Origin: a virus
Lineage: Duplodnaviria > Heunggongvirae > Uroviricota > Caudoviricetes
Direction: 5' to 3' (one strand)
Length of the DNA: 64,000 nt
IMG/VR virus record: IMGVR_UViG_3300035501_000173
Within the stretch, counting starts at the first letter, position 1. Each line of letters begins with the position of its first letter. Made by a program: the position numbers and the translations under genes. Under the pieces are notes generated by a model. It had not been told where the DNA came from, did no database searches, and saw nothing but the letters and a program-made list of their open reading frames with translations. This document shows positions 3,001 to 64,000 of the stretch, piece by piece.

Positions 3001-6000
3001 ACTTTAGAAAGACAAAAGATTATAGACAAAATAATCAAAAGTCGTAATGATGATTTATAGGATCGAGCCATTGAAGCTGCTAAAAATCTAATTAAAGAAT
3101 TACAATTAAGAGCGCAACTTAAAGGTGATTCAATTGATATTGTGGAAAATTCATTCTATAATATTGATAAAGGTCACTTTGTTCCTAATTATGGTTTAGT
3201 TGATCAACTATACCGTTGGGGTAAAATTGATTAGGTTGCGGCAGAAAGTATGTTACCTACTGGATTACTGGCAACTTCACATAGTTATGGTGCAGAAGCT
3301 GGTAAAGAGCATTTGAAATTCTTTAAAGCTAAATCATTCCAAGTTGTATCTGATATACTTCAAGAAAATGGATATATCAACTTATTTGCACCTGATGGCA
3401 AAAGAATTCCTGGAGCATTACGTAAGTTAGGAAACAAGGAAATTGCGGGGACATTAGATGCGAAAAACGGTTTAGGAAAATGGTCACAAGGTGGAAAACT
3501 AGCTTTAGCAGCTATTCGTTATAGAGAACTTTATGAAGGTGGTATTAAAGAGAAAGCACAACAAATTACAGACCTTAATCAATTAAGTGATATAGGACTT
3601 GTTTAGCAAGCTTTTAAATTTATTAAGTATCTTAATTCTTATAAGTACGGTGTTGTAACGGGACTTACGATAGACGAAGCGGCAAAAAGTATTAGTGATA
3701 ACTATTCTACTATGCGGGAATGCTATAGTTTAGATGATTATTTACGTAATCCTAAATTTAGTTTACTGACTTTAGAGAATGCTATTAATGACTACTTTAA
3801 ATGGTAGGATATTGAACGTGGTATAGCTAATTACAATTCTGATAATGGGAATGTAGATATGTATGCTGAGGTTCGCAAAAATGTTTTCGAGAACGATAAA
3901 ATAGAAATCGAGAAACAGTACAATAAGCGAATTGAGGATAGCAATACTAAATATGATAGTAATATTGCCAGCATAGATGAACAAATGGGGCTTATTACTA
4001 GTGTTGAAGAGTCTGAACGATCCGATGCTGAAAAAGAACGTCTTGTCGATTTAATTGCGGAAAAAGAGCAGTTAAAAGAAGCTAAAGCCGAAGCCGAAAA
4101 GAAATTAAAAGAATCACTTAAAGAAACAATTACTAAAGTAACTGACCGTTATAACAAAGTATTAGAGCAAGTTCCTGCTTACATAAAAGCTGTTTAGGCA
4201 AATCCTAATTTTGCCCATACCGCTGAAATAGTAATTAATCCTGATTTGGAAAAGTATAATGCTTTTAGTTTTCTGTATGGTCAAGAATATACTATAGCTA
4301 CAGTAGGAACGCACTTAAACCATCCTGGTATGAAAAATAAGGATGATTTAAAAGCTTTTGAAAGTCTTTCTTGGGCACAGCAAGTAAAACGTAATGTATC
4401 TTTAACCGCTGCTAAACATTTATATTCTTTAAACTCTTTAAATGGTTTTGGAACTTATTGTAAAATTGCACAGATAGTTTCTGAATCTGATGCAGTTTAT
4501 AATCTTACAGGAGCATAGGATGAAATGCTTAATGATGATGGTGCTAACTACACTAATGGTGTTACTCACCGTCTTGAAAATTATTCATTAGGTAGTGACG
4601 CTGTAGGAGTTGATAAAAAGAACTTTTTCCACATGGAAGATGGTGCTTCTGGTACTGGATTTATTGGCAAGAATGCAACTTTCGTAGGTACGAATTTACG
4701 TATCAGAAACTCTAAGGCCTATAGATTATAGAATTTCCAAATGCTTCGAGGAGCTGTAGGTTACTTAAATCCTTACTTAACTAATGGTGGTTTAAATATT
4801 ACAGAAAGCTTTGAAACTTATTACGATAGTAATACTAGAAAGTGGGAGTTCTCTAAAATGAACTACGAGGACTTTGATTATAAAATTCCCACGTCTTATA
4901 AGCCACATATTTAGTATGAAGTTTAGCTTGAGGATGGTTCTTGGACTGCAGCTAATGGGCTATTACAAGGTTATAATGTTCGTGTAATAGGAGATTCTAT
5001 TAAATTTAAGGATGGTTATACAACTTTTAAATTCTCTAATGTATCTTAGATTGATTCTACTGGAGAGGTTAAATCATTGCCTAATGCGGCAAGCTTTAAT
5101 TTTAGAGTTAAATTGGATAATGTACACGATATTTGGGAATTTTTTGGTGGTGCTTATTCTGGAAAAGCTAAAGAACAGGTTATAAATGGAGATTTGATAT
5201 TAACAATGGATGAAAATAGTTATGATGAATCTTCATTTGATTTAACTACATGGGTTGTAAATAATGTAGGAAAACGAAGAGAAGGTGTTGGTATGGATGT
5301 TAAAGTAGAATCACAAACGCAAGTAGACCAATACTTAAAAGATTCTATGATACATTATTTATCTTCCATTGAAACTATTAAATAGGGTTAGAATAAAATC
5401 AATAAGCGTTCTGATATACGAAATGAAAACTATATTCCATTATTTATGGAAATGGATATGCACGATGCAGGAGTGCAATTAAATGCAGAACACCATTCCG
5501 ATGATTCAGTTCTTTCCATGATGACTTAGGTTTTAAATGCCTTAGGAGCTAGAGGTTATACTTCTTAGGAAGCAGATAAAACTTATCAAGCTTTGCAAGG
5601 TCTTACTAATGCTGCATTGTAGGAATACATTGATTATTCAAGAGCTGGTGATTCGCCACAAAAACGTCAACACTTAGAGAATTTCATAGCACATATAATT
5701 GGTGATACTATTCAAGCTAATAGTACTTTAGATGAAGGTACTTTAGCTGGTGCTTTAATGCACCAAGCATAGAAGTTATTAAGTCGTAATAAGAACTTTA
5801 AATTTGAAGAAGTTCGTTAGTACTTACCTATTGATGATCCAGCCTTACTTAGAAATATGATTTCTAAATTAGCTTCTGGGTTAACAAAAAGATGTATTCG
5901 TGTTAAATTCCCAGGGTCTATGGATGTCATGTCCCCGTCAAACTCTATCTATAGATTATATGACGGTAAAATGTTATCCGAGTATAATGGAGATTTAACA

Positions 6001-9000
6001 GCTTTAACAGAAGCTGATAAAAAGGCTCCTATATTAAAACCCCATGAAATAAAAATAGACAGAGTATATCATATAGAAGGTTGTCCCGGAGCTGATAGTA
6101 GAGGTTATATAAAAATTAATTACCCTACCGATTACTGGCAAGTTCGTCGTTTCCTAGCAACTGCGGAAGGGCAAAAAGTAGAAGTCAGAGAAGTTCTTTC
6201 AGAAGGAAGAGAGCTTGCTTCGTTTGGTATAACTTTTGAAGCTATTGACGAAAATGGTCATAGGAATACTTATAATATGTGGGATTTAGCTACAGCTCGA
6301 GATATGTTTATTAAAGACAAGCTCGAATTGGAGAATGGAAATTCCGATTATAAGTAGAATCATGCACAAAGAATGCAAGATTTGCAAAATGCTTTATTTG
6401 CTTTAAGTGATAATCCAAATGTTAAAACCACTTAGGTTATTGATTATGATGCTAATGGTAATGTAATCTATAAAACAGTACGTATTGCAAAGGAAACTGT
6501 TAAGAAACAACCTTATGAAATTATTATGTCTCAGCTTTATAAAACTACTTTTGGTTTAAGGGCTGGGGATTCTATAGGAAATATTATTAATGATAAGTTA
6601 TTCTTCTTTAAGAGAGCTGTTGAGAATTGGGAGAATGATAAGAACAGACTTCCAGAAGAAGCTTATGATGTGCAACTAAAACAAATTAGTGGTAAGCACA
6701 TTAATTTACTATATGATACAGAGTCTAATAATCCTGATGGTTTTGAGGAGTTACAATTTGATCCTTATATTGATTAGCAAGGTACTATATGGCTTACTAA
6801 CAATAAAGGTGATAAAATAATGAAATTGTCTTCTAAAGATGATGTAGTTCTAAGTAATGGTTCTGGTGATATTATTATTAAAACCAAAGATTTAAAATGG
6901 TATTGTGATAATAGTAAATATGTAGACTTAACTATATCTTCTGGGCGTGATGAAAATACTCTACAAGAAATACTTGGTATATTAAGAGAATCTGATAGTA
7001 AGCAATTAAAGAGCCTGTTTAACCGTCTTGATACTTTATGGGAGTCAAGAGATAGGAAAGAAGCTTTTGAAGACAAAACTCCAGAAGAGCAAGCAGAAGA
7101 AAGGGCTAAATTTGACCATAAGTTTATATCTGTAGGACGTTATAATTTTGAAAGCACTAAAAAAGCTTTACATAACTTTTTAAATAATCGTTATATAGAT
7201 GATGAAATAAAGTATGAATTATTGGATTATGCTCTTAATAGTGATAAGGATACTTTTAATGAGGATAAGTTACGTGAAGATGTTGAATCTTACGGATTAC
7301 GTGACAGTATTGCAGACCAACTTATTAAAATGCGTAAAGGTCATATAGGTTCTATCTTTAGAAATTCTAAATATATAGGAACATCTTTCCAAAAATCTTT
7401 GGAAGTACTTGCAGCTCGTATTCCCGCACAATGTATGCAATCCTTTATGTCTATGAAGGTTGCTGGATTTGATACTAGTGGTTTGAATACAGCTTATGTA
7501 AGCCGTTTCTAGACTTGGTTACAAGGTTCTGACTACGATATAGACAAGGTTTCATTGCTTGGATTTAAATTTAGAAATGGGCACTTCATTACGTGGTCAA
7601 ATTTCATGGATTTAACTTCTACAGCAACTCTTAAAGCTTCTGAAGAACTTTCTTATCCTACTAACCTAGCTGCAGAGGTTCTTGAAAATGATGCTATTAA
7701 TAAAACAAGCCTAAATGAGGATGCTCTTGAAAATGTTAGACTTGATACTAGTATTGATAAAGAAAACCGAGAAGGGGTTAGAACTTTATATGTTCAAGTA
7801 GGAGCAGAAGAAGTACCTTTATTAGAAGTACGTGATGCCTTTAAATAGAATAAAATTAAAGAGTTTACTGATACTTATAATGATATTAAATCTGAATATG
7901 ACGATATAAGTATAGAGAAGGGTGATGCAGAAGCAAAAACTTACTTAAAAAGTAAATATAAAGAAGTACTTGGTTAGGAAGCAGGTCGAAAATAGGTTAA
8001 AACTCTACTTAAAGAGTTAGAAGACCATTATAAGTTCGTAGGGCAAAAGGAATAGGTAAAAGAAAATAAAAAAGCTGGAATTTTCACAATAAATCCTATA
8101 GCAGATGCTGAAACTCTTGCTAATTACGAAACTCAAATTCAAAGAGTTGTTTATGGAGTTATCCCAACTGGTGGTGTAGTATCTATAAATGGTGCTGATA
8201 GTACAGTTATTAATGATATGTTAGTAAAGTATGGCTTTTCTCTTAACCAAAACGTACTAACATAGACTGGTGAGAATGTTTCTGTAGCTAAAGACTTCTA
8301 TGATTATATTACACGTGAGGATTAGATTGCAGGAATTCCTGTCAGTGAGAATTTGGATTCTAGAATTATTATTAAAAATGAATCTGGTTACACCCTTAAC
8401 TACTATCCTGGAGAATTTGCGGATGAGAAAGTACAAGTTGCTAAAATTAAAGCCCTTGCTAAATTTATTGATGCTGTAAATAAATTTGGTGGTATTCCTA
8501 AACTATCTATTACGGAAGATTTAGACGAAGAAACTAAAGAAGCTTATGAGGAACATAATAATGCTTTATAGCAATTGATGGATGAAATCAATGAGCATAA
8601 CTTGTATTTAAAAGATGGCAAAGACTATAGTCAAGATGCTCTTTTAAACTTCGTATCTTCTAATATGTATAATGTGGGCACAAACCCTAGTAACCTTATC
8701 TAGGGTACACAATCCGTAGATGCTAAAGATGGTTCTGTAAATAGAATTAAAAAATTAGCTAACGAGGGCGACTACAAAACTAAGCTTAAACGCTATGATC
8801 CAGGTTCTATTACTAGCTTATGGAATATGGAAGCTTTAACTATTGGTGGTAAAAAGAATACTGGTATTGTTGCTGCCAATCTAAAAGTATTTGAAGGATT
8901 AACTCAATATACTAACATGCTTCTTAATGAGGGTACTCATGAAGAGTTACAAGACTTGCTTGCACATCGTAATATTGCTGGAAAGGATATTCATTTACTT

Positions 9001-11733
9001 GCAAATGTTTACCAGCAGAATAAACATAATTTCACTACTCGTGAAATTTAGGAAGCTCTTGATGCTGTTGACCAAACTCTCGATGCTTACTTGGAATATT
9101 CTGGATTCTTGTCATTGTCTACCGACAATGCTAAAGACCCTACACTTGCCAAAATTAACGCTGGTGAGAAATTATTAGGTTTATACTTATGTGGTGTAGC
9201 AGTAGGTATTGATGTTCCCAGCTTAGTTAAAATATTAACATCTAAAGCAGCCGCAGAATCTGTAAAATTATTAACTAGTAATATGTTTAATAATGCACAA
9301 GGATTCTTTGATGTTAATGCTTTAGATCGGTATCTAGCATCTGGCCCAATTTAGGTGGTAGATGAGTTTAATGTTAGTATGCTTAACTAGCCAGTTCTTA
9401 AAGCATGGATAATAAGTGTTTGGAATAGAGAACACAAAAAGGCAGATTCCCAATTAAGTGCTAGTAGTAAAATAGGTAGAAAACACCTTTCTCATGCCAT
9501 ACAAAAGGATGGATGGCAAAAGTTTAATGACGCTTTAGTAGATTCTCTTAAAAATATTACAAAGGAAGTACATAAAGGTGATGATGCTTTAGAGGTAGCT
9601 GAATAGTTAGAAAATGGTAATCAAAATAATGATTCATCAGAAGTAAAGGAAGAGAGTGCAACTACTGAAAAAGCAAAAGAGAATCTTTGGGCTGTTTACA
9701 ATCTTCTGAAAAAGGTTCAAACTTAGGTAAGAGATTTTGCTAAATCCTAGGAAACTATTAAAGATTGTTGGGTATAGTTACCTAATGGTAGATGGGTTCA
9801 AGCTTGGAGTCAAATTAGACGTTTAAATTAGGTAGCAAATGAATTTAAAAGATTCTCTCAAGTAGCTAAATTAAATTAGCAACTTCCTAATGCTATGGAT
9901 GAGCAACTTGCTTGGATTCGTAAATTTGAAAAAGGTATTGCATCACGAATTTCTGAAATAAGTAAGTAGGAGTTGGACAATCACCCCGAAATGTAGCAAG
10001 CTATAGACGAATTAGAATAGCTAAATAAAGAGTTATATGCTTAGATGATGCAATAGGGAATACTTTCAGGAGAATAGTTTGACCGTTTGAAATATTCCGT
10101 AAGTTTGAGTAAATTTGTAAATGATGCAGAATACCAAAAAAAGATATGTAGTATCTATGGTAAGTTAAAGTATGTTGTAAATGTTTATGATGCAATGGCT
10201 AAACTTCCACATTACTTAGGATATGCTAGAACTCTTGCAGCACTTAGTGAAACTATGGGAGAAACATCTAAAATATACCAAACTGTAAATTACATTTCTC
10301 AAAATGTTATAAAGAGTCTTGGTGATGAATAGCATCGTAAGAAAGAACTTACTCGTTTAATAGACTGGGTTAATGATTGTCTTACTAATGATTTCTTGTT
10401 AAATCGAGGAACTAATCTTACAATTAAGTCTGGATCTAAGTATTATGAAAAAAGTTATGGTCTTACTACTGGTATAGACCCTACTTTAAAAACAGTTGGT
10501 GAGGGTGCTACTTCCACCATACAATTAGGAACTTTGGAAGGCAATATGTCATTTAAATATATAATGGAAAATGAAGTATTGCCGGATTTAAAAGAGAAGT
10601 ATCCTGCATTTGATTTAATAAGAGACTTAAATCAAATTAAGTTTGATAAAACTAATGATAGAAATACATTAGTAAAAATGGCAACTAAGTCTACTATGCT
10701 TCCTAGATCTGAACAAGAAATACAAACTTTAGCTAAGTACAAGGAAGATCTCATAACTTTATCTAATATTAGGTTATCTCAATTTAACGGAGAAATTAAT
10801 TTAGTAGATGCTTTATTTGCTTACAATTTAATTGTAAATAAAGGTAAGGTATCTGGAAATTCTCTTACTAATTTGTTTGAGGATTATGCAATGAGTTAGG
10901 GTAAGTAGTAGACTGATGGGTAGCCTTCTGCTTTTATAGAAGATTATTATAATTCAAGACGAGTTCCAAACGAAAGCTTACTTGAAGAATTAGCATTTTC
11001 TGATAACTAGGTACAGAACTTCTTAATGGCTACAGCATAGTATGATCCTACTTATAAATCTAAAGCAGAGTATATCTACATACGAAATCCTTTTACTAGA
11101 TAGTATGTACTAGCTCAGAAAATAAACAAAGAGGAGATTAGAGCGCAATACACTGATGAGGATTTAGGTGTAGAAGATTACGGAATTGATGATGTTGCCG
11201 AAGATTATATTAATGAGGATTATTCTGATTATGATGACGATGATTACGAAGGTTCAGACTCATCAAATTATAAGAATCAGCGTGCTTGGGAGGCAGGAGT
11301 TGAAGTATAGGGTTATAAAATACTTGGAGTTTCTTCTACTGTGGACGCTTTTAATAATTTTGCAACAGCAATTTATGGAAAGTAGGAAGTCGAAAAAGTC
11401 TTTGATAATATAGAAATTAGTGAGGATGGTAAATAGATAAAATCTATTACTTATAAGTCTGGTGATGATCCAGACGCTCGCACTCTTACGTATGATGATT
11501 TATTTGAAGGTACTTCGGATATAAGATCTGAAAGACGTAAAGCCTTAGAAAAGGAATTAGGAATCAAAGCAAAAGATACTCCAGAATCTAAGCTAGAAAA
11601 AGTACTTATTAATTTTGGTTTAGTAACTAAAGATGCTGATGGTAACATACAACTAGTTTAGAATACTAATGCAAACCCTACAGTAACTTTAGGAGATGTT
11701 ATAAAAATGATTAAAACAGGTAAACCATGCTAA
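1..11733 (+). CDS. Giant protein, 5'-partial in window (>3,900 aa). It is translated with TAG as a sense codon (likely Gln) and ends at TAA 11731-11733. Function unknown; plausibly a virion, cargo or tail-associated protein.
   Basis: Frame 1 is open from nt 1 to 11733 with no TAA or TGA but about 80-100 in-frame TAG codons. All track ORFs 853..10899 lie in this same frame (start mod 3 = 1). The translation is coherent and protein-like across the TAG positions. No canonical RNA polymerase DxDGD motif was seen by eye. Confidence 0.7.
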
Positions 11734-11734
11734 T

Positions 11735-12820
11735 ATGGCAGGATGTATGAATAAAAATGATAGAGGATACCAGTCGTTAAGTAGAATGGCTGGTATCCCT
11801 TCTATGGTATTAGACGTTTATTGTCAAAAGTATTTAGATTCATTTAATAGATTACCTAACTTAGATGAATTACCCCTTGTGGATTCATCTAAGCATTTAA
11901 ATGAATCTTTAAAAACAAAATAGATTGGAGATTCAAGTTTTGCTAGTAATGAAGCTATACAAAAAACTACAGGAGCACAGTCCTTAGGAGAAGCGCAAGT
12001 AAAGCTTAATAATACGTATAGAGATTTACAAGTAAACTTAGTGGAAGTTACAGATAAATCATCTTTACTTGAAGTATAGCATAGACCTAGTGTATTTAAA
12101 GAACTTAATCAAGAATATACAGGGGAAAATTTTGATGTTCAATCTGATACTGACAAACGTGTAGTTCTGCGAAATATGCTTGGTAAACTAAAAGATTTTT
12201 ATGGCATTAAAATTAATGAAGTTACGTCTAAACAATTATGTGAAGGTGACTTTGCTAATATAATACCAGATGCTAAAACCGCTAAAGCCTTTATTTATAA
12301 TAACGAAATATATATAAATACGGATATTGCAGATATAGATGCACCTATACATGAATTAATGCACATATTTTTAGGTGGTATGCGCTATACTAATCCGACT
12401 ATATATTTTAATTTAGTGTCTAAAGCATAGCAGTTTAAGAATTTACAAAGTCTAAGTAAGGTATATCAAGATAGAACTCAATCTGATTTTTTAGAAGAAG
12501 CTTTTGTTTCAGAGTTTTCTAAGCTTTGCGCTGGTATGCACAGTGAATTTGATTCTTGGTCTGCTGAGGATCTTAACCCGTTATTATATGAAGTCCGTAG
12601 AAATATGGACTCAGCTTTAATGGGTAATAAAAGTGTTAATAGTATTGATCCTAATGAACTTTTTAAAGCAAGTTTCTTAGATATTGCTATGCGCACAAAA
12701 TCTCCTGAATTAAATAGAAGCGATTTTAGTATTCTAAATCTCGCTGAATTACATAGACAGAATGCGAATATTAAATCTAAGATGCTAAAAGATGGTGACT
12801 TAGTTGAAAAATGTGATTAA
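11735..12820 (+). CDS. 361-aa protein with an HExxH zincin-like motif (…DAPIHELMHIFLGG…). It carries 3 in-frame TAG codons and a TAA stop. Possible metallopeptidase.
   Basis: The ATG lies 1 nt after the gene-1 stop. Track ORFs 11735, 12176 and 12536 share a frame and are separated only by TAG. The HELMH motif was seen in the translation. Confidence 0.55.
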
Positions 12821-12822
12821 GT

Positions 12823-15800
12823 ATGGCTTGTAAATTTATATATAAAGGCAATAGAGTTTTTAATTCTGAAATTGCACTTGATGAGTTTCTTATTAATAGT
12901 AAGAAGTATTAGGAAGGTTCTGATATTGTATTTGAGTTAAGTACAATTTAGAAACAGCGGGGTGCTAGAATTAAACAACGTGGTAAGGCAGCTGATAAGT
13001 TAATTACTCATAATCCTGTAATATTTGATACAGATTTATTCGAGGATTATGAAATGAATGAGTTCGGTTCTGATAACTATGGCGTTACATTCGCTCTTAA
13101 ATAGTATGTAGATGCGGAAGGTCACCCACTTTTTCCTATATTTAATCTGGAAAACTACTGGCAACATAAAATGCCAGACTGGTAGAAACAAGAATATTGG
13201 ACTAAAGGTTATTAGGATGATACAGGTGAAGTACATAAATGTGATAAGTACGAGTATCAAGCTGTTTGGGGAGATAAAGATCCTAATGATATTACAGCAG
13301 CTCCTACTAATGACTAGTTGGAAGTTGGTAAAAAAGTAATGGAGAGAGTTTGGCCTATGCAAGGTTTTATGGGTACTGGTGTACATAGAATGATTGCAGC
13401 TTATTGGAAATGCTAGACAGCTCATAAAGGTAGGGCTAGTGCTACACAAGTTAAAGCAGAAATGACCAAAGCTCTAGATTTTCAATTAATAGGAAGTGGT
13501 AATAACAATCCTTTATTATCAGAATTTAAAGGCATTAAATACTCAGATTTTCTTTCTGATAAAGTAGATGATACTTACTCAAAATGTAGAGCTATTCACG
13601 ATGAACTTAATTCAAAGTTTTTAACAGATGAGTAGCGTAAATCTGGTATGGAATTGTATTTCTTACCTGAAACCGCCATTACTACAGAAGTTGATGACTT
13701 TGAACATCCCGATAAGAAGAGAAACTTATTGGGTAATGTAGACTTATTTGTAATTGATCCGTCTGGTAACATTCACATTATTGACTACAAAACTTCACCT
13801 AAAGAATATAATGAGTACAACTCAGCTAAAATTAGAACATTCTACTATTAGTTAGCTACCTATAGACGTTTGACAGAGCGTATGGGTTTTGCATTAGACC
13901 ATAATTCTAATGTGTATGTAATACCTATTAAGTTTGAAAACTTCTAGATTGATCCAGAACAAACTGATGTTACAAAGCTTTGTAAATTTGATAATCTTAA
14001 ATTACGTGAGGGAAGTTCTGGTATTTTAGAGCGTTTGGAAGTTAAGGCAAGTCTTAGTTCTACAGGTGTAAACTCCGATACTATTAATAGTAACTTGGAT
14101 AAAATCATTCCTATTAAGAATACTAAAATCATGGCTGATGGTGATATTCTGGATGATGTTAAAACTTAGATGAAAGCCTGGTTTCCAAGTTTCGGTAAGT
14201 ACAATGAAATTACTAAAGAGTATGTTGTCAAGATGCTTAAACGTAAAGGTCGTGATAAGATAAATCCGAACAGTTTGAAATATACTTATAAGGTTGGTAA
14301 GAAAACTGTAATTACTGATAGCTTTGAAGCTCTTGTAGATGGGGTATACTAGGAATATTAGAAGATGGAAGAACACGTTATGGATAGAACTTAGGGTGTT
14401 AAAACCATCTTACAAGAAGCTATAAATAATAAGGAAAATGTAGTCATTGATACAGGATATGCTCATAGCTCTCGTAAATTTGCAAGAGAAAGTTATCTAG
14501 AAAATTTGTTAAACCCTTATACTACTGGAGAATATGAAATCCTTGATGATTATAATGAAGCCACAGAACGTCTTGGAATAATATTACTTAAAAATATACA
14601 TACCAATAAAATTGATGTATTAGTAGTAGATACTAGTAAACATGCTTTTGATGATGAAATAGCACTAGGTGGTACTGAGAATAGTCCAGGACGTAATAAG
14701 ACTTTAACAGGAACTTTTATTTCTGATGTTACTGCAAGAAATAAACCTAATGAGCTAGTACTTGATAGTACTTATGGTAATATTAGAATGATGGAAGTTA
14801 TGTAGGCTTTAAATAATATGTCTGCTTTATTTAATAGTGATTCCGCAGGAATGGAATCTACATTAGGAGAGATTAAAATGTTTAATCAATTTCATAATGA
14901 TGGTTGGACAGCTTCTAATGAACAACTTCTTTACAACTTTAAAGAATTACATAAGGCTAATAAAACAGAAGACTAGATTCATTTAGGTAAGGATATAAAA
15001 ATGTGTAGTTAGCTCGATCTTATTAAGCATAGGTGTAATGAGATTATGGCAAATCCAGAACATGATAGAAAATGGAATGGTATTCAAACTGCTATAGATA
15101 ATACACAAAACTTTACAGTTAATCCTATTATACTTAAATCTCAGCTAATCGGATTAGCACATGACATTGAAGAGAAATTTAAGTTAAAGAATGATACTAA
15201 TGCTAGAAACTTGGAAGGTGATAAAGCAGAAGCATATAGTTTCTTAGCAAACTTATATTCTGCTATTGCAGAAATTGATGGTATTCATTTTAAATAGCAA
15301 ATTAAAGACCATTCTGCTTTCTTAAATTAGTCTGGTGTAAAAAGAATTTTCAAAGAGGGTTGGTCTGGAAATAGTCTTGATAATCCAGGAATGCTTGATT
15401 CTGACACCCTTAATAAGATGGGTCAACGTCTTAATGAAGCCTACTAGCTGACTCGTGACGAGATCCAAAATATTTCAAAGAAGATTTATACATTGAGTAA
15501 AAAATTGAAGGAGGAAAACAACTTCGGATATTTGAAATCTCGAACTATCGGAAATGAAGCATCTATTTACAAAAATTTATATGATGATACTTATGAAGAT
15601 GATTTAGTATTTAAAAACCCATTTGATTCTCACGGAGTAACATTGTCTGAAACTGAAAAGGAGTTTTTAAAGCAATCATTGCTTTTAATCAATCATAATC
15701 GTTATGGAGATGTAAATACTATGGATGACCTAGAATTAGCTATTATGCAGGATCCATATAAATATCTCCGAGTACCATTAACTGAGGGTACTAATGCTTC

Positions 15801-17790
15801 TAAAGTTGCATATAAAGGTATGTGGGAAACCATTAAGGAGAAGTTTAAAAACCTTATCCCTACAAAACTTAATATGCAAAGAATGTTTAAAGGTTTGCTG
15901 GTGGATGAAACTTTATTGGATAACGAGGATGTTCGTAATAAGTATCAAAATAAGGATGCGGAACTTTGGGAAATGAATACTGCATTTGATGCTGGTGAAA
16001 CTGAATAGGCTAGAAAATCCATGTTAGCTAATTATGGTAAGAATTATTTTGAGCATAATCTAGAATTACTTACCATGAAACATGCTTATGCTTATACATT
16101 AAAGAATAATATTAATAAAATATTTCCACTATTTAAAGCATGTGCTTTACAACTAGAAATGGGTGGTGCTATAATGAATACTCGTTTCGCAGAAGACATT
16201 TAGTACTTACATGACTTTATTACTAATAAAGTACTTAATATGTCTATCTAGGATCCTAAATGGAGAACTGCTTAGTACGTATGTGGTAACTTAATGTCTG
16301 GAGCTTCTAAACTAGCATTAGCTTTTAACCCAAAACAATTTTATCAAGCTATTGATGGTTTATGGAAAGATATTTCTTTAGTGATAAGACAAAATGAATA
16401 CGATCAAGCTTTCAGTCAGTAGAATATGAAAGATTCTTTCTGGTGGGTTTACAGAGATTTAACCCATAATTGGGGTGACGGTAAATCATTGGCTTAGGTT
16501 CTTAATGAATAGTATGGTATTAATGATATGGATATGAATTCCTACATTGATAAAACTAAACCTAATCAATTTGGTATCTTTAATTTGGATAATGTAATGT
16601 TCCATTTCGCGTCACGTCCAGACTTCTATAATAGAATGACTATTTTTGGAGCTCAGATGAGACATGATGGTTGCTTTGAAGCACACGACGAAGACGGTAC
16701 ATATCATTGGGAAAAAGACTTGCGCTATAATATCTATGCTAAATATTGTAAGGATGAAAGTGCTGTCCCAGCTTCTTTAAAAGCTGAATATAATAAGCAG
16801 AAAGCTCGTTATAAAGCTGCGGCTACACAATTTCAAGCAGAGGGTGCTAAATTTAAGAATTCTGATGGTGAAATGGAGGATTTTGTTGTAGACCTCTCTA
16901 ATCCAAAGCCATTACCTAGAGCGTACACAGTTAAAGAAGCTGAAAGTATTAAATCTTTAGCAGATTTAATTTATGGATATTATTCTCATGAAAAGAAATC
17001 TATGATTCAATCAACGACTGCTGGAGCTTTATTTATGCAAATGAATACATTCTGGTCTTCTAAGAAAAACTAGTGGTTTTTACCAGGAGGAGTACGTATG
17101 TAGGGTACATATGAACATTATTCTGAAACTTAGGAAGATGGAACTAAAAAGTATTATTACCAAGATGAGAATGGTAATATTACAGATTAGGAAACGGATA
17201 CACCATTCATGGTTTGGAAGGGTCGTTATTAGGAAGGAATCATGGTAACATTAGCTAATATTTTTAATGATACTTTCTATGGTGATGAAACTGGTAAGAA
17301 AGGCTTAGGTAATGCTATTGATAAGTATTGGAACGCAACTGATGAAAACCTTCGTAATGCTTATAGAAATAATTTAAAGTAGTTACTATATGATTTATTA
17401 ATGTTTCTATTCTTAGGAATGCTTATTGCACCTGCTTTAGAGAATGCTGCGAAAGCTCATGCTAAAGAAGTGGGTAATGGTGACTTAGGTGATGCTATGA
17501 TAAATAATGCTACGGTGAATTTAACTTCTATGTTATCTACATCTACAGATGATTTTAACGCACTTAAATCTATTTTTGGTAGAGGTGTACAATGGACACC
17601 ATTCTCTATATCTACACTTACAAACTCTTATTAGAGAGTAAGTTCAGCTGTATCAGGTAATAGTGATTGGTATGATGCTATTGTTAAAATGTCCGCAGCA
17701 GGAAGAACATAGGAGAATATGTTTGATTACATAAAAATAAATACACTCGGTCGAAAGATTGGAGACAATGGAGTAGTAAAAGAGGATTGA
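12823..17790 (+). CDS. Large protein of 1,655 aa translated through many in-frame TAG codons. It ends at TGA 17788-17790 and has a hydrophobic segment near its C-terminus (LLYDLLMFLFLGMLIAPAL). Function unknown; virion or cargo protein candidate.
   Basis: The ATG at 12823 follows TAA 12818-20. The frame is continuous through track ORFs 13648, 14170, 14506, 15046, 15493, 16021, 16528 and 17401, with only TAG interruptions. The first TGA is at 17788. Confidence 0.65.
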
Positions 17791-27020: not shown

Positions 27021-27253
27021 TTTACTATTTTATAAGTTACATTTTCTTCATTCCAACCTTCTAAATCAGTTCCTGATATACCAATACCTCTAGACTGTAG
27101 AAACTTTATTAAAGTATTTATTATGTCTTTAGGCTTTTGTATATTTTCAGAATATCTCTTTAAAAAGTCTTCATCCGATTCTCCTTCATTTTGTTCAAAA
27201 TAAAGGGTTCTATTCATATTCAAGCTTACTTGAATTCCTTTATACATACTCAT
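27017..27253 (-). CDS. Hypothetical protein.
   Basis: ORF of 78 aa. Confidence 0.4.
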   Translation of the reverse strand: MSMYKGIQVSLNMNRTLYFEQNEGESDEDFLKRYSENIQKPKDIINTLIKFLQSRGIGISGTDLEGWNEENVTYKIVK

Positions 27254-28110
27254 AACAACGCTTCAAATTTAGTTCTGTCTTTAGTTTGAAAATCCTTAAT
27301 AAGTTTATGATGAATTTGTCTAATCCTCTCAGAACTTAATGCAAACTTACGGGATATTTCATTATAATCCATTTCATTACACCCTTTAAGACCATACAGC
27401 ATACAAATAATATCATGGTCACGACTACTTAATTTCTCAAGTATTTGCGATATTCTATCTGCGATATAATTATTATTAGTAATAGCTTCTGGATTATCTG
27501 AAATTGGATTAGGAATGCAATCTCCAATAGTGCAATCTTCTGAATCATCAATACTAGGAGCATCAATACTTACACAGTTATTTGTAGAAGTTTGTACATC
27601 TCTAATCATATCCTCGGTAAATCCTGATAATTCTGAAAGTTCTTCAACAGAAGGCTCACGTTCATTTAACTGCTTAAACTTAGCTGTTAATTTATTTAGC
27701 TTAGTTTTAGGTTCTATTTGAGAAGTCGGAAGTCTTACATTATTTCCTGTATAATAAATAGATTTTAATATAGCTTGTCTAATCCACCATACAGCATAAG
27801 AAATAAATCGAAAGCCTCTTCTTTCATCAAACTTTGTAGCTGCTACAACCATTCCAGCATTTCCCTCAGCAACTAAGTCTTCCAAAGGAACACCTCTACC
27901 TTGATACTGTTTAGCAACAGTAATAACAAATCGAAGATTGGCAGATACTAATTTATTAAGAGCATTCTTATCACCCTCTCTAATTCTTTTAGCTAATTCA
28001 CACTCCTCTTCTTTACTAATCATTTCAATATGACTTACATCTTTTAAATACATATTAAAAGATTCCGTATTTCTAGGGGTGATACTTTTAGTTATATTAA
28101 TAGCTTTCAT
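27250..28110 (-). CDS. Sigma-70 family RNA polymerase sigma factor, phage-encoded.
   Basis: Region 2 reads LEDLVAEGNAGMVVAATKFDERRGFRFISYAVWWIRQAI and region 1.2/2.1 reads EEECELAKRIREGDKNALNKLVSANLRFVITVAKQY. The C-terminal region 4 helix-turn-helix reads MDYNEISRKFALSSERIRQIHHKLIKDF. Confidence 0.85.
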   Translation of the reverse strand: MKAINITKSITPRNTESFNMYLKDVSHIEMISKEEECELAKRIREGDKNALNKLVSANLRFVITVAKQYQGRGVPLEDLVAEGNAGMVVAATKFDERRGFRFISYAVWWIRQAILKSIYYTGNNVRLPTSQIEPKTKLNKLTAKFKQLNEREPSVEELSELSGFTEDMIRDVQTSTNNCVSIDAPSIDDSEDCTIGDCIPNPISDNPEAITNNNYIADRISQILEKLSSRDHDIICMLYGLKGCNEMDYNEISRKFALSSERIRQIHHKLIKDFQTKDRTKFEALL

Positions 28111-28355
28111 TCGTTCCTATAAATTTTAGTAGTATGCCAATTATTTTTACGATATGTGTCACGTACTTGTTCTATATAATCTCTAGCTAGTGCTACACTT
28201 GCAAATTCACGTGTGCGAAGGCAAGCTGGTATATCATACGGAGTTGGGGTACACTCAAGTTTCCAACCATTCCAATGGTGACGCTCTACTAAATAACGAG
28301 CGTCACCATTATCATTTACTTGTCTAAGTATTCTAAATTTAAGCATTATCCTCAA
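28107..28355 (-). CDS. Hypothetical protein.
   Basis: ORF of 82 aa overlapping both neighbours. Confidence 0.4.
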   Translation of the reverse strand: MRIMLKFRILRQVNDNGDARYLVERHHWNGWKLECTPTPYDIPACLRTREFASVALARDYIEQVRDTYRKNNWHTTKIYRNE

Positions 28356-29715
28356 TATTTACAGAATTGTCAGCAAGTTCTTGTTTAACAAAAGCAAAAC
28401 ATTTTAACTTAAAAGCTTCAGAACGCATATTTTCTACCTTAATAACTAGTCCTTCATGAGGAACTTTATTATTACAACTAGGTGAAGGTTCTTCCATATA
28501 AAAATCTTTGTTATTAGTGAGGAAATTTATAAAATTCTCACAATAACTTAGATTATCATCATAGCCATTCATACCCCAAGTAAGCTTACCAGCTTCTCCG
28601 TAGTAATATTCAGTTACTGGAATTAAACCATTATTCTTACACCATTGTTGTACTTCTTTAGCAGAAAACTCATGTACTTTACCATCCTCATTAGTTAAAG
28701 TAATTCTATATACTCGTACTTTAAAGTTTATTTCTGGTTCGAATGATACTTTACCATTTTCATCAGTTTTTGGAGGGCAACATCCATAATCATAATTCTT
28801 CTGAATGAAATTACCATTAGGTAAGTATCCAACTATCTCGTAATATAAGGACATACCTTTCCAGAGTTTGTCTTTAACATACTCATGTGCATACTTCCAT
28901 ATATCACAAGTTTCTTCAACACCTTGATATCTATTCTTAATTACATTCTTAGAAGAATATAAATATTCATAGCTTCTCCAGTTAATACACCAATCACCTA
29001 TTGTATTAGATAACCAGTTTATTAGCTTATCTCGCCAAGATAACTTGCTCTTACAAAGTAAATATGCTGACACTCCGCTAGTACCATGAATTTTCTCAGT
29101 AATACTAACTATATCATCATAATTTACTACATAAGGACATTTTTTAATAAGGACTGTTTGATAGTGTAGTCTAAATTGTCCATCAAGGAGGAGGTCAAAT
29201 CCTCCGGAATCCTTAACTTCTTTAAATTTAGATACTTGTACTTGGTTTCTTGCTTTCTTACATATCCAGATTGATCCTCCTTTAAATTCGATTGTGTCGA
29301 ATTCTTTGTTTTCGTCTTTACTTGACTCATAATCACTTATAGTTGTATAATTTTGTAACCATTCTAAGAGTATCTTATACTCTATTAAAAAGCCTTCTGA
29401 AACTAAACCCTTCAATTTAATAGCAGTTACTTTACCATTATCCTCAAAGAATCCTTTCTTACTAGTATCTGCATTAAGATTAGAATGCCTATACAAGTTT
29501 GTAAATTTCAGAAAATCAGGATTAATAGTAGATAAAGTTGGAAAATATACATACAAACCAGTAGGAGAATCAACACTAACAATAACTCTATAACCATCAA
29601 CAGTAGCAACCTTTAATTTAGTTACTTCGGGATTTGGATGATTAGAAAATTCTGTAATGTTAATAATCTTAGCAAGATAGTTAATATCTGCATTAGTACT
29701 TTTTATTAATTCCAT
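28339..29715 (-). CDS. Rnl2-family RNA ligase with an N-terminal extension domain.
   Basis: Nucleotidyltransferase motif I EKIHGTSGV, the KxHG form specific to the Rnl2 family. Motif IV reads HEGLVIKVE and motif V reads KLKCFAFVK. Confidence 0.55.
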   Translation of the reverse strand: MELIKSTNADINYLAKIINITEFSNHPNPEVTKLKVATVDGYRVIVSVDSPTGLYVYFPTLSTINPDFLKFTNLYRHSNLNADTSKKGFFEDNGKVTAIKLKGLVSEGFLIEYKILLEWLQNYTTISDYESSKDENKEFDTIEFKGGSIWICKKARNQVQVSKFKEVKDSGGFDLLLDGQFRLHYQTVLIKKCPYVVNYDDIVSITEKIHGTSGVSAYLLCKSKLSWRDKLINWLSNTIGDWCINWRSYEYLYSSKNVIKNRYQGVEETCDIWKYAHEYVKDKLWKGMSLYYEIVGYLPNGNFIQKNYDYGCCPPKTDENGKVSFEPEINFKVRVYRITLTNEDGKVHEFSAKEVQQWCKNNGLIPVTEYYYGEAGKLTWGMNGYDDNLSYCENFINFLTNNKDFYMEEPSPSCNNKVPHEGLVIKVENMRSEAFKLKCFAFVKQELADNSVNIEDNA

Positions 29716-29717
29716 AT

Positions 29718-30032
29718 TTACCCTTTATTTTCAAAGCAAAGATTATCTAGATTATAAGACGCTAAAGTATTAAACCAAGCCATATAACTTTCATCTTCCA
29801 ATTCTTCTGGAGTTAGTTTATTAACATTTATGTTAACCCAATAATCATCGTTACCTTCTAAATCCTCGTACATCCCATATTCATCATGTGCATCGTCTAA
29901 GAATTCGTCTGGATTAATATTTAACCTCTCAGTGTGTTCATCTTCTGTCATTTCAGATTCAGAATAACCTGCATAGTGTAAACTAAAACGATCATCACCG
30001 TTCAGTTCAGATGTAATAAGAAATTTATTCAT
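29718..30032 (-). CDS. Hypothetical acidic protein.
   Basis: ORF of 104 aa. Confidence 0.45.
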   Translation of the reverse strand: MNKFLITSELNGDDRFSLHYAGYSESEMTEDEHTERLNINPDEFLDDAHDEYGMYEDLEGNDDYWVNINVNKLTPEELEDESYMAWFNTLASYNLDNLCFENKG

Positions 30033-31224
30033 AATCTCTAATAGATTTTAATACTGGTTGTAATGGAGTACCAGCATCTGAGTAATAAAAATACTTTACA
30101 GTAGCCATTTTACCAATCAATTTATCTAAATTATCACGATATTGTTGCTTAATTTCTCTAGAACCCATAGGTTTTGCTTTAAATGGGATTCCATCGGAAG
30201 TTATTAGCTCAAAACACATATCTTCATCACGAAGACCTTCAGATAATCCTACAATCTCGTATTCAGAATCAAAATAATGCTTGATTTTTATCATATCATT
30301 CGTGCGACCATTAGGTCTATACACTTTTTCAGGATCTCTGATAACAAGACCTTCCCAACCTTCACTTACGTATTGATCGTGTAGTTTATTCATATTATTC
30401 CAGCCAGTAACTTGTACATGAGGAACAAATTGAATAGGTAATTCACCTTCTTCAAAGTCGTAATCAGGTTGAAATTGTAAATTAAGTGTATCTCGGATTT
30501 CCATTAGAACTTTTAGACGCTCTTTAAATGTCTTAGTAGTATCTACAATATCATACAAATAATATTGTAACCAATCCATATCATAAGCATTCTTTTCCAT
30601 TCTAGCGGCACCACTAATCTGCTGCAACGACTTGCCATGTCTATATAATTCTCCGTCTAAAATTAAATTAGGATGTTCAGTAAACAATTTAACTAATCCA
30701 GGATTTTCTGTAATATGATGAGTAGAGTAATCGTAATGCTCTCCGCCTCTGGAAGCAGTATGTATAGCCCCATCTCGGAAGTACATGAGCATTCTAACAC
30801 CATCAATCTTTCTTGAAGCATACCAAACTTTATTATAGATTTTTTGATTAGTCACTTTATCAGCTTGCTTAGCAAGCATAGGTTTCATAACCCCAGCTTG
30901 ATTAGTAGCTTGATCTCCAACAATTTCACGTAATTGATCTGAAGTGTAAGTATCTGGATCATCATCTAGTTCTTTATAACCTTTATCCTTATACTCCTTG
31001 AGTTTAGAATTAAACTGAAGTCTGGCTTGTTCTGTAACAGTTCTATTAGCTTTACCGCAAGTAATTGTAATAGGAGGTTGTTCTGTTAGTTTACCACCAA
31101 ATATTCCCGTAGTTCTATTTAGAATAAATCCATGAACGTCGTCATCCCAATGAACTTCAAGTTGTACTTGTCTTATTTTATTCTTTGAGTCTATAGATAC
31201 TAAATATTTATTAAGTTGATCCAT
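30025..31224 (-). CDS. ATP-dependent DNA ligase.
   Basis: Motif I KIDGVR, motif III LILDGELY, motif IV EGLVIRD and motif V MIKIK. Confidence 0.75.
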   Translation of the reverse strand: MDQLNKYLVSIDSKNKIRQVQLEVHWDDDVHGFILNRTTGIFGGKLTEQPPITITCGKANRTVTEQARLQFNSKLKEYKDKGYKELDDDPDTYTSDQLREIVGDQATNQAGVMKPMLAKQADKVTNQKIYNKVWYASRKIDGVRMLMYFRDGAIHTASRGGEHYDYSTHHITENPGLVKLFTEHPNLILDGELYRHGKSLQQISGAARMEKNAYDMDWLQYYLYDIVDTTKTFKERLKVLMEIRDTLNLQFQPDYDFEEGELPIQFVPHVQVTGWNNMNKLHDQYVSEGWEGLVIRDPEKVYRPNGRTNDMIKIKHYFDSEYEIVGLSEGLRDEDMCFELITSDGIPFKAKPMGSREIKQQYRDNLDKLIGKMATVKYFYYSDAGTPLQPVLKSIRDYE

Positions 31225-31824: not shown

Positions 31825-32028
31825 TTACCAATCATAACTTTTAATATTTTTATTTACTTTATGGTACTTAAAATTATGGTTAGCAATTATACATTCTAAT
31901 AAATAATTTTCAACATCTCCATCTCTAAGATAAAAATTAATAATATTAAATATATAATCTTTATTTTTAGAGTTGAAATGTTGACCTGTAGAATGTATAA
32001 ATTGATAAAAGAAATCTTCTGCCGTCAT
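31825..32028 (-). CDS. Hypothetical protein.
   Basis: ORF of 67 aa. Confidence 0.35.
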   Translation of the reverse strand: MTAEDFFYQFIHSTGQHFNSKNKDYIFNIINFYLRDGDVENYLLECIIANHNFKYHKVNKNIKSYDW

Positions 32029-32213
32029 TTATCCCCAGTATGTCCGAAACCTCCAGCACCTCTTGTAGTTTCATCAAGTGAATTTACAGGAACCCACTGA
32101 ATCTTAGAAACTTGCTCTAAAGTAATTTGAGCTATACGATCTCCATGACGTACTACAAAATTATTATCAGGATCAGTATTTATTAAAATAACTCCAATTT
32201 CACCGCGATAATC
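32025..32213 (-). CDS. dut: dUTPase, exon 2 (motifs 3-5: DYRGE, GDRIAQ, RGAGGFGHTG).
   Basis: The C-terminal dUTPase motifs are present. This fragment lies in the same frame as exon 1 and is separated from it by a 1.09-kb insert. Confidence 0.7.
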   Translation of the reverse strand, partial: DYRGEIGVILINTDPDNNFVVRHGDRIAQITLEQVSKIQWVPVNSLDETTRGAGGFGHTGDK

Positions 32214-33305
32214 CATTTATGTTATCCTAAAGACTCTTTATTCTTTAGTTCTGCAGTTTCATTAGTTATATCTGCAGGTCGGACTATATCTTCTCCAACA
32301 ATATTTATAATTTGTTGGAGCAGGGCACTCGTGGTAGCATTACTATCCTCGCTAAGGACTCGGCTACTAGTCTCTGAACCTTCAAGAGTATTACTACTCA
32401 AGCTTGGCTGCTGATTGTCCACCTCTGGAGTTTCCAGCAATTCACCCTGTTTTAAGACGCCAATTATCGCTTTATATTTTTCAGATCGTTCATGTGCTTT
32501 AGTATTATGGTATGTAGTATGTTCAGAACGTGTTAGTATTTGAAGATTTTCTAAACGATTGTCTGTTTTTATTTCATTTATATGATGCACATCATATTCA
32601 TCTTTTAGAACAATCCATCCATTAACATTCTCAAAATACTTAGGATCAAACTTATCATGATTTCTTTCAATTACTAATCTATGCTGTCTAACTCTAGATC
32701 CTTGAACACTTTTATCACAGGGTTTTGGATGTCCTGGACAATACTCTAACACGTAACCTAAATTAGAAATTGTTTCTTTACCCTTAAAACTTGCATTTTT
32801 ATCACCAGTAAGTCCATATTGATGATTATTTTCTCCTAAATATGTAGTTTCTCTTAATTTGTTACTACATTCTTTACTACAACAAATTTGCGTTTTAACT
32901 TTTTTTATTCTACTAGGTTTCGCATAGAATTGGTTACCGCAAATAGGGCAAGTACAATTTAACTCAGTCTTTTTTCTAAATAAAGCTGAGCAAGTAGTGC
33001 TACAACATTGATAGGTCTTTGCACGACTCGGAGTAACGTATTCTATTTTACCACAATAAGCACATATTACTTCTATTTTATCTACAGCATTCTTTTCATT
33101 CGGTTTTCCTTTACTGTGTTCATCCGAACATTGTTTACAACAATATTTTCGATGAGCACTTTTCTTTCCTAAGAAAGTTTTTCCACAATTTAAACAAATA
33201 TATTCTACCATACTAATTTTTTTAATATGGTTAAATATAGACAATTTTATTGGAATAACCTAATAAAAATAATAAATTGTGTAGTAACTGTTAATATATA
33301 ATTTT
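32214..33305 (-). mobile_element. Group I intron (~1,092 nt) interrupting dut and carrying an HNH homing endonuclease ORF.
   Basis: dUTPase is split exactly inside motif 3 (…TPGCIDA | DYRGE…). Exon 1 ends in U (GCU), the insert ends in G, and the internal ORF is in a different frame. A stop follows AKIIY immediately after the junction. Confidence 0.6.
32222..33244 (-). CDS. HNH homing endonuclease with N-terminal Cys-rich zinc-ribbon repeats, encoded within the intron.
   Basis: HNH motif HHINEIKTDNRLENLQILTRSEHTTYHN. There are multiple CxxC pairs at the N-terminus. Confidence 0.75.
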   Translation of the reverse strand: MSIFNHIKKISMVEYICLNCGKTFLGKKSAHRKYCCKQCSDEHSKGKPNEKNAVDKIEVICAYCGKIEYVTPSRAKTYQCCSTTCSALFRKKTELNCTCPICGNQFYAKPSRIKKVKTQICCSKECSNKLRETTYLGENNHQYGLTGDKNASFKGKETISNLGYVLEYCPGHPKPCDKSVQGSRVRQHRLVIERNHDKFDPKYFENVNGWIVLKDEYDVHHINEIKTDNRLENLQILTRSEHTTYHNTKAHERSEKYKAIIGVLKQGELLETPEVDNQQPSLSSNTLEGSETSSRVLSEDSNATTSALLQQIINIVGEDIVRPADITNETAELKNKESLG

Positions 33306-33635
33306 AGCGTCTATACAACCTGGCGTGTTAAGAACAGTTATACCGTGTTTAAGAGCTAATCCGCTACGAGGTCTTACTTTTATTTCATAACCTTCTGGAA
33401 TTGCAACGAATAAACCAGTAGGAATAAGTGCTCTACCTCCGGGACGGATAACCACAGCACCACCTTCTGTATAAAATTGATTATCTAAGATACAATCAAC
33501 TCCTTTAACATTAAGTATTCCATGAATATCTGCTCGCACATCCATACCAGCAGAACCATCGGTTTCATAACTAGGAAGTGGATTATTCCATTGTTCATCA
33601 TAATATTGCTTTTGCTTTACTTTTACTTCTACCAT
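33306..33635 (-). CDS. dut: dUTPase, exon 1 (motifs 1-3: [38 protein letters not shown]).
   Basis: N-terminal dUTPase motifs. The track ORF 33291..33635 reads 15 nt into the intron before its stop. Confidence 0.7.
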
Positions 33636-61647: not shown

Positions 61648-61694
61648 ATTATTTTAGTTTATATAAAAATAGCTGGATGTTACTCCAGCTTTAG

Positions 61695-61766
61695 TTGAAT
61701 ACAGAGGAGTCGAACCTCTACTAGTAGAACCAAAATCTACTGTGCTAGCCATTACACAAGTATTCA
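61695..61766 (-). tRNA. tRNA-Gln (anticodon UUG).
   Basis: Manual cloverleaf: acceptor TGAATAC/GTATTCA, D-arm GTGT…GCAC, anticodon stem GTAGA/TCTAC with loop TTTTGGT (anticodon TTG), T-arm AGAGG-TTCGACT-CCTCT. CCA is not encoded. Confidence 0.7.
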
Positions 61767-63017: not shown

Positions 63018-64000
63018 ATCTAAAAATTAATTTAATTAAAGCAAGCATACAGCATAAATACAAGGCTTATAAAAATTATAAGCATTTGTACAATATGCTT
63101 TCACAGCTTTCTTCGCAAAATTTAATACTCTAGTTGTCATAAAAATTCTTTGAATTTAACAATTAACATGGCTATCATTTGAGATAGTCTTTTATCTAAC
63201 CTAGGGAATTTTGTACCGCTAACAGGGAACGATCCTGTGTTTAAAGAATGAAAATCTTTTGTCCTGACCTCTAGACGATAGCGGCTTAGTGGCTTACCTT
63301 TGCAGATAAGCCCCACCTTTTACCAGTTATGCTGTTGGCAAGCACCAGTTATTCTTGTTGAAAACTGACAAAAAAGTCGGCAGTAGTTTTTTGTAGATAA
63401 ACCTGCGAAAACATTTAAGGAATTCGATTATATATTTGATCTTCGAACTCATCATAATATTTGTCCTTACATGGACTATAAGACTCTCTATTAAATGTTT
63501 GATTTCTTCTATTCTTGTGTGAAGAATGTTTACTTGAATGCTTGAGAGCTTCTTGTTTCTTCCTATTCCAACTCATTTTGTTCTTCTATTATATCTAGTT
63601 TTATTAAATCCACTAATACTTCTACTATCTTGGTAGTGAAAGCCTTTAGGCACATCTGTTACCTCTAAAAAATGATTTGCATAGATAGGTTGTGCATCAC
63701 AGCCTACACCTACACAGTAGCTTATTTTTTGAACCATAATAAATTTAAATAAAACTAACTATCTTCACAGACTGTTAGTTTAGTAACTAAAACAATAAAT
63801 ATATATAAAATGACAGTATATTTAGGTGGCACTGCCCCACACTCATTAATCGTAGTACTCCGAATTAACGCGAGTTTCTAATTACTCCTAAACACCTTTA
63901 TAGTTAACAAATACAAGGTTTCTCACACCCTTCATACTGTATTGTTACTAACAGCTAATTTCCCTGTGTTAGTCAGGATACTAGCAAATCACCTACTACT

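Follow-up and report, generated by a model that had tools for sequence, protein, structure and literature searches.

Introns in the dUTPase gene are already annotated in crAssphage and its relatives. In BK010471 (Carjivirus communis, the prototype crAssphage), KP06_gp34 is entered as a joined coding sequence (CDS), 'putative Dut dUTPase, contains intron insertion', and KP06_gp35 as a 'putative intron-encoded HNH endonuclease'. Annotation of two uncultured crAss-like phages, cr1_1 (MT774380) and cr50_1 (MT774375), shows dUTPase divided in the same way or in a similar one, and a dUTPase split by an intron-encoded HNH endonuclease has been described (PMC7551546). Here we analyzed a 64-kb stretch of DNA (64,000 nucleotides, hereafter the window) from the IMG/VR virus record IMGVR_UViG_3300035501_000173, whose dUTPase gene (dut) contains a further example. 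The two halves of dut are intact and flank an insert with the anatomy of a group I intron, covarying helices and homology to the annotated crAssphage introns. We conclude that dut is very probably interrupted by a group I intron with the splice junction GAC GCU|GAU UAU. All features of the locus lie on the minus strand, and coordinates are those of the window.

The split dUTPase gene

The dUTPase is encoded in two open reading frames (ORFs). The first (33635..33291) encodes 110 dUTPase residues, ending in ...NTPGCIDA, and continues for five codons before a TAA. The second (32216..32025) encodes DYRGEIGV...GFGHTGDK. We therefore place exon 1 (110 codons, motifs 1-3a) at 33635..33306, ending ...GGT TGT ATA GAC GCT, and exon 2 (motifs 3b-5 and the TGA stop) at 32213..32025, beginning GAT TAT CGC GGT GAA. 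Between them lie 1092 nt (33305..32214), opening with AAAATTATATATTAA... and closing with ...CATAAATG; the first nucleotide is A (33305) and the last is the omega-G (32214). Because the length of the insert is divisible by 3, both exons stand in one genomic frame. Its G+C content is 31% overall and 41-44% in the final 290 nt. An earlier note on this DNA, made from sequence inspection, had described a dUTPase gene at 32025-33635 split within motif 3 into same-frame halves by an insert of about 1.09 kb, with U as the final nucleotide of exon 1 and G as that of the insert. The coordinates, the length and both terminal nucleotides are confirmed.

The two exons together account for one dUTPase. Exon 1 matches positions 24-70 of the Pfam dUTPase profile (PF00692; 29.8 bits) and exon 2 matches positions 71-129 (49 bits). 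The two ranges abut at 70/71, indicating that nothing is missing or duplicated. When the exons are joined (GAC GCT|GAT TAT, within ...ATAGACGCT|GATTATCGCGG...), the 172-amino acid (aa) product matches PF00692 24-129 of 129 in one stretch at 90.5 bits, and the PHROG dUTPase family (PHROG 135) at 187 bits. Both exons are open and all dUTPase motifs are retained.

The insertion point is the boundary between an Ala codon and a conserved Asp codon in motif 3 (I-D-A|D-Y-R-G-E). The Asp of D-Y-R-G, just 3' of the insertion, is presumably the catalytic Asp of E. coli Dut. Homing endonucleases typically target such invariant catalytic sequence. More than 1400 phage records carry an uninterrupted dUTPase homologue, and the joined product aligns with uninterrupted phage dUTPases over its full length. 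Intron-less relatives, to which the earlier note had pointed for comparison, keep motif 3 unbroken and read PGC(I/V)DADYRGE continuously. In IMG/VR, the nearest dUTPases lack an intron and share no more than 55% identity with that of the window.

A conserved catalytic motif is also a typical intein site, an insert length divisible by 3 is what an intein would have, and inteins are frequent in crAss-like phages (PMC7886860). However, removal of the insert at the protein level is refuted by the sequence. A TAA in the exon 1 frame occupies insert nucleotides 13-15 (33293..33291), the long ORF of the insert is in another frame, and no Hint or intein domain is found, HNH_3 being the only match. The stop is TAA and not TAG, so the TAG recoding apparent elsewhere in the window gives no rescue. 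The earlier note had thought an intein unlikely, and the stop 13 nt into the insert together with the missing Hint domain excludes it.

Ribozyme core and guide sequence

The Rfam group I intron model RF00028 matches the insert with 70.3 bits, above its gathering threshold of 50. The match extends from 32536 to 32251 and covers the full model (1-253; E = 3.5e-17 in a 2.7-kb search). Over the entire 64-kb window it has E = 8.4e-16 and is the sole group I match; an nhmmer profile of the ribozyme family likewise found no second copy in the window. We considered the first two hairpins of the Rfam alignment (32536-32477) as P1 and P2 and rejected them, as they lie upstream of the guide sequence and within the HNH coding region. 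We read this 5' part of the match, about 60 nt, as a forced alignment of the model's P1/P2 onto coding sequence.

The internal guide sequence is a contiguous stretch of 16 nt at 32470..32455 (5'-GCGAUAAUU-GGCGUCU-3'). Its 3' part (32461..32455) base-pairs with the 3'-terminal 7 nt of exon 1 (AGACGCU, 33312..33306), forming a P1 of 7 bp with a U·G pair at the splice site. Its 5' part (32470..32462, GCGAUAAUU) base-pairs with the 5'-terminal 9 nt of exon 2 (GAUUAUCGC, 32213..32205), forming a P10 of 9 bp, and this P10 strand lies directly 5' of the P1 strand. The 15-mer GCGATAATTGGCGTC inside the guide occurs once in 64 kb. The guide is 845 nt downstream of the 5' splice site and 5 nt (UAAAA) ahead of P3. 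A guide near the 5' splice site, which would place the ORF in a P2 loop, was rejected, since GGCGTC occurs only once in the intron, 845 nt in. There is no P2 helix, and the 5-nt spacing between P1 and P3 is identical in all 33 aligned relatives. The T4 td intron has a P2. Because none is predicted here, we do not assign the window intron to subgroup IA2.

These pairings bear on whether the two halves could be separate genes. A naturally bipartite dUTPase, in which two genes flank a free-standing homing endonuclease of the mobE type and the halves associate as proteins, has a precedent in the split nrdA of Aeromonas phage Aeh1, and gene callers and the GenBank records of cr1_1 and cr50_1 do give two 'dUTPase' CDSs. 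However, what lies exactly between the two halves of the window gene is a complete group I core, with P1 and P10 to match, and the gene is broken inside catalytic motif 3. Moreover, the only start codon or initiation context available to exon 2 is an ATG formed by the last three intron nucleotides, and the crAssphage record joins the two pieces. We consider two natural genes extremely improbable and retain the group I intron.

The ribozyme core (32449..32227) comprises P3, P4, P5, P6, P6a, P7, P7.1/P7.2, P8, P9 and P9.1. P3 is formed by 32449-32443 and 32327-32321, and P7, which is pseudoknotted with P3, by 32374-32368 and 32286-32281. The P7.1/P7.2 extension is a hairpin of two helices at 32367-32334. 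The helices were drawn on the window sequence and scored on 33 non-redundant relatives aligned with MAFFT from sequence alone, no structure having guided the alignment. Across the 65 core pairs, 90.2% of cells were standard pairs, compared to 32-42% when the partners were slid. Double-sided changes were present in 42 of 65 pairs (20-27 with partners slid), and the covariation score was 0.433 (0.06-0.09 in the slid controls), a value reached by 0 of 500 shuffles. P7.1/P7.2 exhibited double changes in all 10 of its pairs, with 74-85% of cells paired. Five contiguous P7 pairs are invariant among the aligned relatives, and the P7 pair beside the bulge (104-197) switches between AU (18 sequences) and GC (15) and is never mismatched. 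A minimum-energy fold of the core recovered P4, P5, P8, P9 and P9.1 (z = -3.0). In the window copy the invariant nucleotides of P7 and the J regions, the omega-G and all core helices are intact. Thus the group I intron that the earlier note had proposed, along with the RF00028 match and the guide and P1-P9 fold it expected at GAC GCU|GAU UAU, finds support in the model score, in pairing of the guide with both exon ends and in covariation of the helices.

Comparison with related loci gave further evidence for the splice site. Automatic assignment of splice sites in 94 distinct loci was consistent in 39, and some were clearly mis-assigned; our splice-site comparisons therefore rest on 13 curated dUTPase cases. 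In the 12 curated dUTPase cases that share the site of the window intron, exon and guide change jointly, giving four exon/guide variants: GACGCU/GGCGUC, GACUCU/GGAGUC, GACUAU/GUAGUC (crAssphage) and GACGGU/GCCGUC. All four retain a P1 of 6-7 bp with its U·G pair. This joint change is independent support for P1 and for the exact 5' splice site. P10 has 4-6 bp in 11 of 12 relatives and 2 bp in crAssphage. A sister intron lineage (loci L008, L022, L038, L053 and L060) occupies a dUTPase site that is 7 nt farther upstream (…ACGAU|A GAC GCA GAU UAC). Its guide matches its own site, indicating that motif 3 of dut has been hit at two positions. Three introns of 321-447 nt (L060, at 321 nt, L032 and L110) are too short for an endonuclease gene.

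The ribozyme family extends beyond dUTPase. A 19-mer across J/P3-P4 occurs in at least 117 IMG/VR contigs, about 30 of which have the intron in dUTPase and the others in other genes. When 2.1 kb and 24 kb of the window were compared by megablast to 50,697 phage records, the sole match was the ribozyme core of cr1_1, over about 148 nt.

Together, these features suggest a mobile, phage-type, self-splicing group I intron with a P7.1/P7.2 extension and without P2, residing in the dut gene of a crAss-like phage. On the unspliced transcript, the guide (32470-32455) would pair with the end of exon 1 to form P1, which sets the U·G wobble at the point of cleavage. P7 would bind an exogenous guanosine, and this would attack 3' of that U. 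The guide would next align exon 2 through P10, the terminal G (32214) would enter the G-site, and the exons would be ligated as GAC GCU|GAU UAU to give the 172-aa dUTPase. By analogy with other phage intron HNH enzymes, the encoded 329-aa enzyme of the HNH_3 class would nick or cut intron-less dut alleles during co-infection, and repair of the cut allele would copy the intron in (homing).

Several observations weigh against this reading. Catalysis, splicing, endonuclease activity and homing are steps that we infer from sequence. A degenerate pattern for the exact junction peptide had 0 matches across JGI metagenomes, and searches of JGI metagenomes and IMG/VR found no intron-less allele of the window phage lineage. 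In the window copy, two U·U mismatches interrupt P6a. Because the endonuclease ORF extends across the entire catalytic core, a ribosome translating it would unfold the ribozyme. Finally, RF00028 at its gathering threshold fails to report the cr1_1 intron (L001, MT774380 23080-23313), even though its core is 77% identical to that of the window. This shows that the generic model fits the ribozyme family only moderately, and routine Rfam scans probably undercount the family.

Some of these points would also be expected of a decayed, splicing-dead group I relic, in which dUTPase would be a pseudogene or two fragments and the HNH gene a selfish, free-standing one. The overlap of the ORF with the core and the P6a mismatches fit such a relic, and fragmented genes are common in crAss-like phages (PMC7886860). 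However, every core helix is intact, as are P10, the U·G pair, the omega-G and the invariant nucleotides of P7 and the J regions; the RF00028 score exceeds its threshold, and both exons are open with every motif. In addition, the guide covaries with the exon in relatives, implying continuing selection for P1. We consider a relic very unlikely and favor an intron that is still capable of splicing.

The endonuclease reading frame and its overlap with the core

The insert encodes an HNH homing endonuclease in a frame that differs from that of dUTPase. The maximal ORF (33244..32222) starts at a TTG and has 340 aa; from the ATG at 33211 (33211..32222) it has 329 aa. The stop codon, TAA, is 8 nt ahead of the 3' splice site. 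Because homologues 328-332 aa long have their start where ATG 33211 lies, this ATG is probably the start codon and the 329-aa protein is the likelier product. Of the out-of-frame, 340-aa HNH endonuclease in the earlier note, the HNH identity and the frame hold and the length does not. The zinc-ribbon repeats it had seen are also present, as three tandem CxxC...CCxxC modules in the N-terminal part (approximately 33202..32858). This part gives weak matches to TRASH and FCS-type zinc fingers.

The HNH_3 catalytic motif, …DVHHINEIKTDNRLENLQILTRSEH…, is encoded at 32608..32519. The protein matches Pfam HNH_3 (PF13392) at 33.6 bits, above the cut-off of 24.8, and the HNH endonuclease family PHROG 1271 at 69 bits. 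It has 673 homologues, and H220, H221, N229, N233, H242 and H246 are invariant in 15 of them. A PDB search with the HNH protein and with a family profile returned no endonuclease structure, only weak matches to FCS zinc fingers. The predicted homing target is the intron-less junction, ...GGTTGTATAGACGCTGATTATCGCGG..., and the predicted target sequence in an intron-less dut gene is GGTTGTATAGACGCTGATTATCGCGGTGAA. Gene calls for this locus in the source metagenome, which list two fragments of 'dUTPase' and a 'hypothetical protein' between them, should be replaced by a joined dut CDS, an intron and an HNH gene.

The ORF is situated between the 5' splice site and the guide, that is, in the loop of P1, and it reads in frame through the guide and every core helix from P3 to P9.1. 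As a result, the guide bases also encode A-I-I-G-V of the endonuclease, and the core encodes its C-terminal 75-80 aa or so. We examined how frequently such fusion occurs in the family (L002-L118). Of 73 non-redundant members, 30 have an ORF of 150 codons or more that crosses into the core, always in one and the same frame. These fused ORFs enter at AAA CAG GGU GAA UUG CUG and run 8-78 codons in. Frame +2 at core entry reaches a stop after 2 codons in every case. The aligned proteins share a core-encoded tail, ...GVLKQGELLE.PEVDNQQPS...EGSET..R..., and several homologues, with identities as low as 53%, keep the ORF open as far as the same point close to the 3' splice site.

Much of the conservation of this tail is explained by constraint on the RNA. 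A functional overlap, either coupling translation to splicing or encoding a tail with a role of its own, seems to us doubtful. If translation and splicing were coupled, endonuclease translation and ribozyme folding would be mutually exclusive in each molecule, which would act as a switch between splicing and production of the homing enzyme. Alternatively, the tail encoded by the core could have an activity of its own, such as RNA binding in the manner of a maturase, or DNA binding. A regulatory or protein-level role for this systematic read-through into the core is the single question raised by the locus that has some reach. The usual way to keep exon-translating ribosomes out of the core is an early in-frame stop, as in T4 td, and the TAA at insert nucleotides 13-15 would halt ribosomes arriving from exon 1 here.

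Host phage and comparison with described introns

Judged by its genes, the host is a crAss-like phage. The family A DNA polymerase (PolA) of the window is nearest to that of Kolpuevirus frurule (Crassvirales, 47.5% identity), followed by IAS virus and other crAss-like genomes, and is only about 37-47% identical to the enzymes of catalogued crAss-like phages. The neighborhood of dut is a crAss-type replication module with Thy1, PolA, ligases, SF1 and SNF2 helicases, NrdD, primase and DnaB. Just downstream of dut, on the same strand, is an ATP-dependent DNA ligase of 399 aa (30025-31224), adjoined by an RNA-ligase-like protein of 458 aa with a weak Pfam match (28339-29715). Between the PolA and RNA-ligase-like genes, also on the minus strand, a 286-aa protein (27250-28110) matches Pfam sigma-70 regions 1.2, 2, 3 and 4. 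To our knowledge, a full-length sigma-70-type factor is unusual in a crAss-like phage.

The late and early gene blocks of the window differ in their apparent code. On the plus strand, the standard code gives no ORF that reaches 250 aa in 1-17790. When TAG is read as sense, three ORFs appear: one of at least 3911 codons with 79 in-frame TAG (1-11733, open at the window start), one of 370 codons with 3 TAG (11711-12820) and one of 1658 codons with 35 TAG (12817-17790). In these three ORFs, CAG is rare, being used 14, 5 and 6 times, compared to 117, 10 and 31 times for CAA, respectively. This late gene block looks like a case of TAG-to-Gln recoding, which has been reported for crAss-like phages (PMC7886860). 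Genes of the early block on the minus strand, dut and that of the HNH protein among them, follow the standard code. The window encodes tRNA-Gln(UUG) (61694-61766) and tRNA-Glu(UUC) (63213-63285), both on the minus strand. Despite the apparent TAG recoding, no amber-suppressor tRNA was found in the window, beyond which the source contig, of about 73 kb, extends.

The window intron most closely resembles those of crAssphage, cr1_1 and cr50_1. In crAssphage and cr1_1, to which the comparison of insertion sites is confined, the intron occupies the same site, one codon past the first Asp of motif 3; crAssphage reads LD(Y)|GYRGE where the window reads ID(A)|DYRGE. The cores of the three phages are 71-78% identical to that of the window over 91-94% of the core, crAssphage being at 71% over 91%, and their HNH proteins are 40-52% identical, crAssphage being at 40% over 86% of the length. 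In crAssphage and cr1_1 the ORF likewise lies between the 5' splice site and the guide, and the intron has a similar A-rich start with an early in-frame stop. In all three phages the ORF likewise reads into the core. There are also differences. P1 and the guide are fitted to a GCU Ala codon in the window and to UAU Tyr or UCU Ser in the crAssphage group. The window endonuclease has three zinc-ribbon modules, compared to two in its relatives, and its ORF ends 8 nt from the 3' splice site, whereas crAssphage-type ORFs stop in or soon after P8. In the literature we found no published ribozyme structure, P1-loop ORF placement or ORF-core overlap for dUTPase introns. The only reports of dUTPase introns that we found concern crAssphage; the Bacillus phage papers describe introns in terminase and polymerase genes.

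Like the T4 introns in td, nrdB and sunY (nrdD), the window element is a group I intron inserted in a conserved catalytic region of a gene of nucleotide metabolism. Further points in common with the T4 introns are P7.1/P7.2-type helices separating P7 from P3', an in-frame stop soon after the 5' splice site and an encoded homing endonuclease. However, T4 ORFs are looped out of P6a (td, nrdB) or P9.1 (sunY), clear of the core helices, and their enzymes are of the GIY-YIG (I-TevI/II) or HNH (I-TevIII) type. The T4 td/nrdB-like architecture suggested in the earlier note was thus not borne out, as the window ORF sits in the P1 loop and continues through the guide and core, and there is no P2. The DNA polymerase intron of Bacillus phage SPO1 is also a phage group I intron that encodes an HNH homing endonuclease. 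This enzyme, I-HmuI, is a nicking endonuclease with a helix-turn-helix DNA-binding module; the window enzyme instead has zinc ribbons, and both the host gene and the position of the ORF differ.

These findings leave what is known of group I introns unchanged, and the structure, the ORF placement and the overlap with the core are refinements. The core also resembles that of the psbA intron of Synechococcus phage S-PM2, which is not known to contain an internal ORF and is mobilized by a free-standing endonuclease. Although it resides in another gene, its P3-P6 region is 76% identical to that of the window over 90 nt, indicating the same broad ribozyme lineage in phages of unrelated hosts. One conserved ribozyme lineage is spread through gut and environmental phages, up to the most abundant human gut phage.

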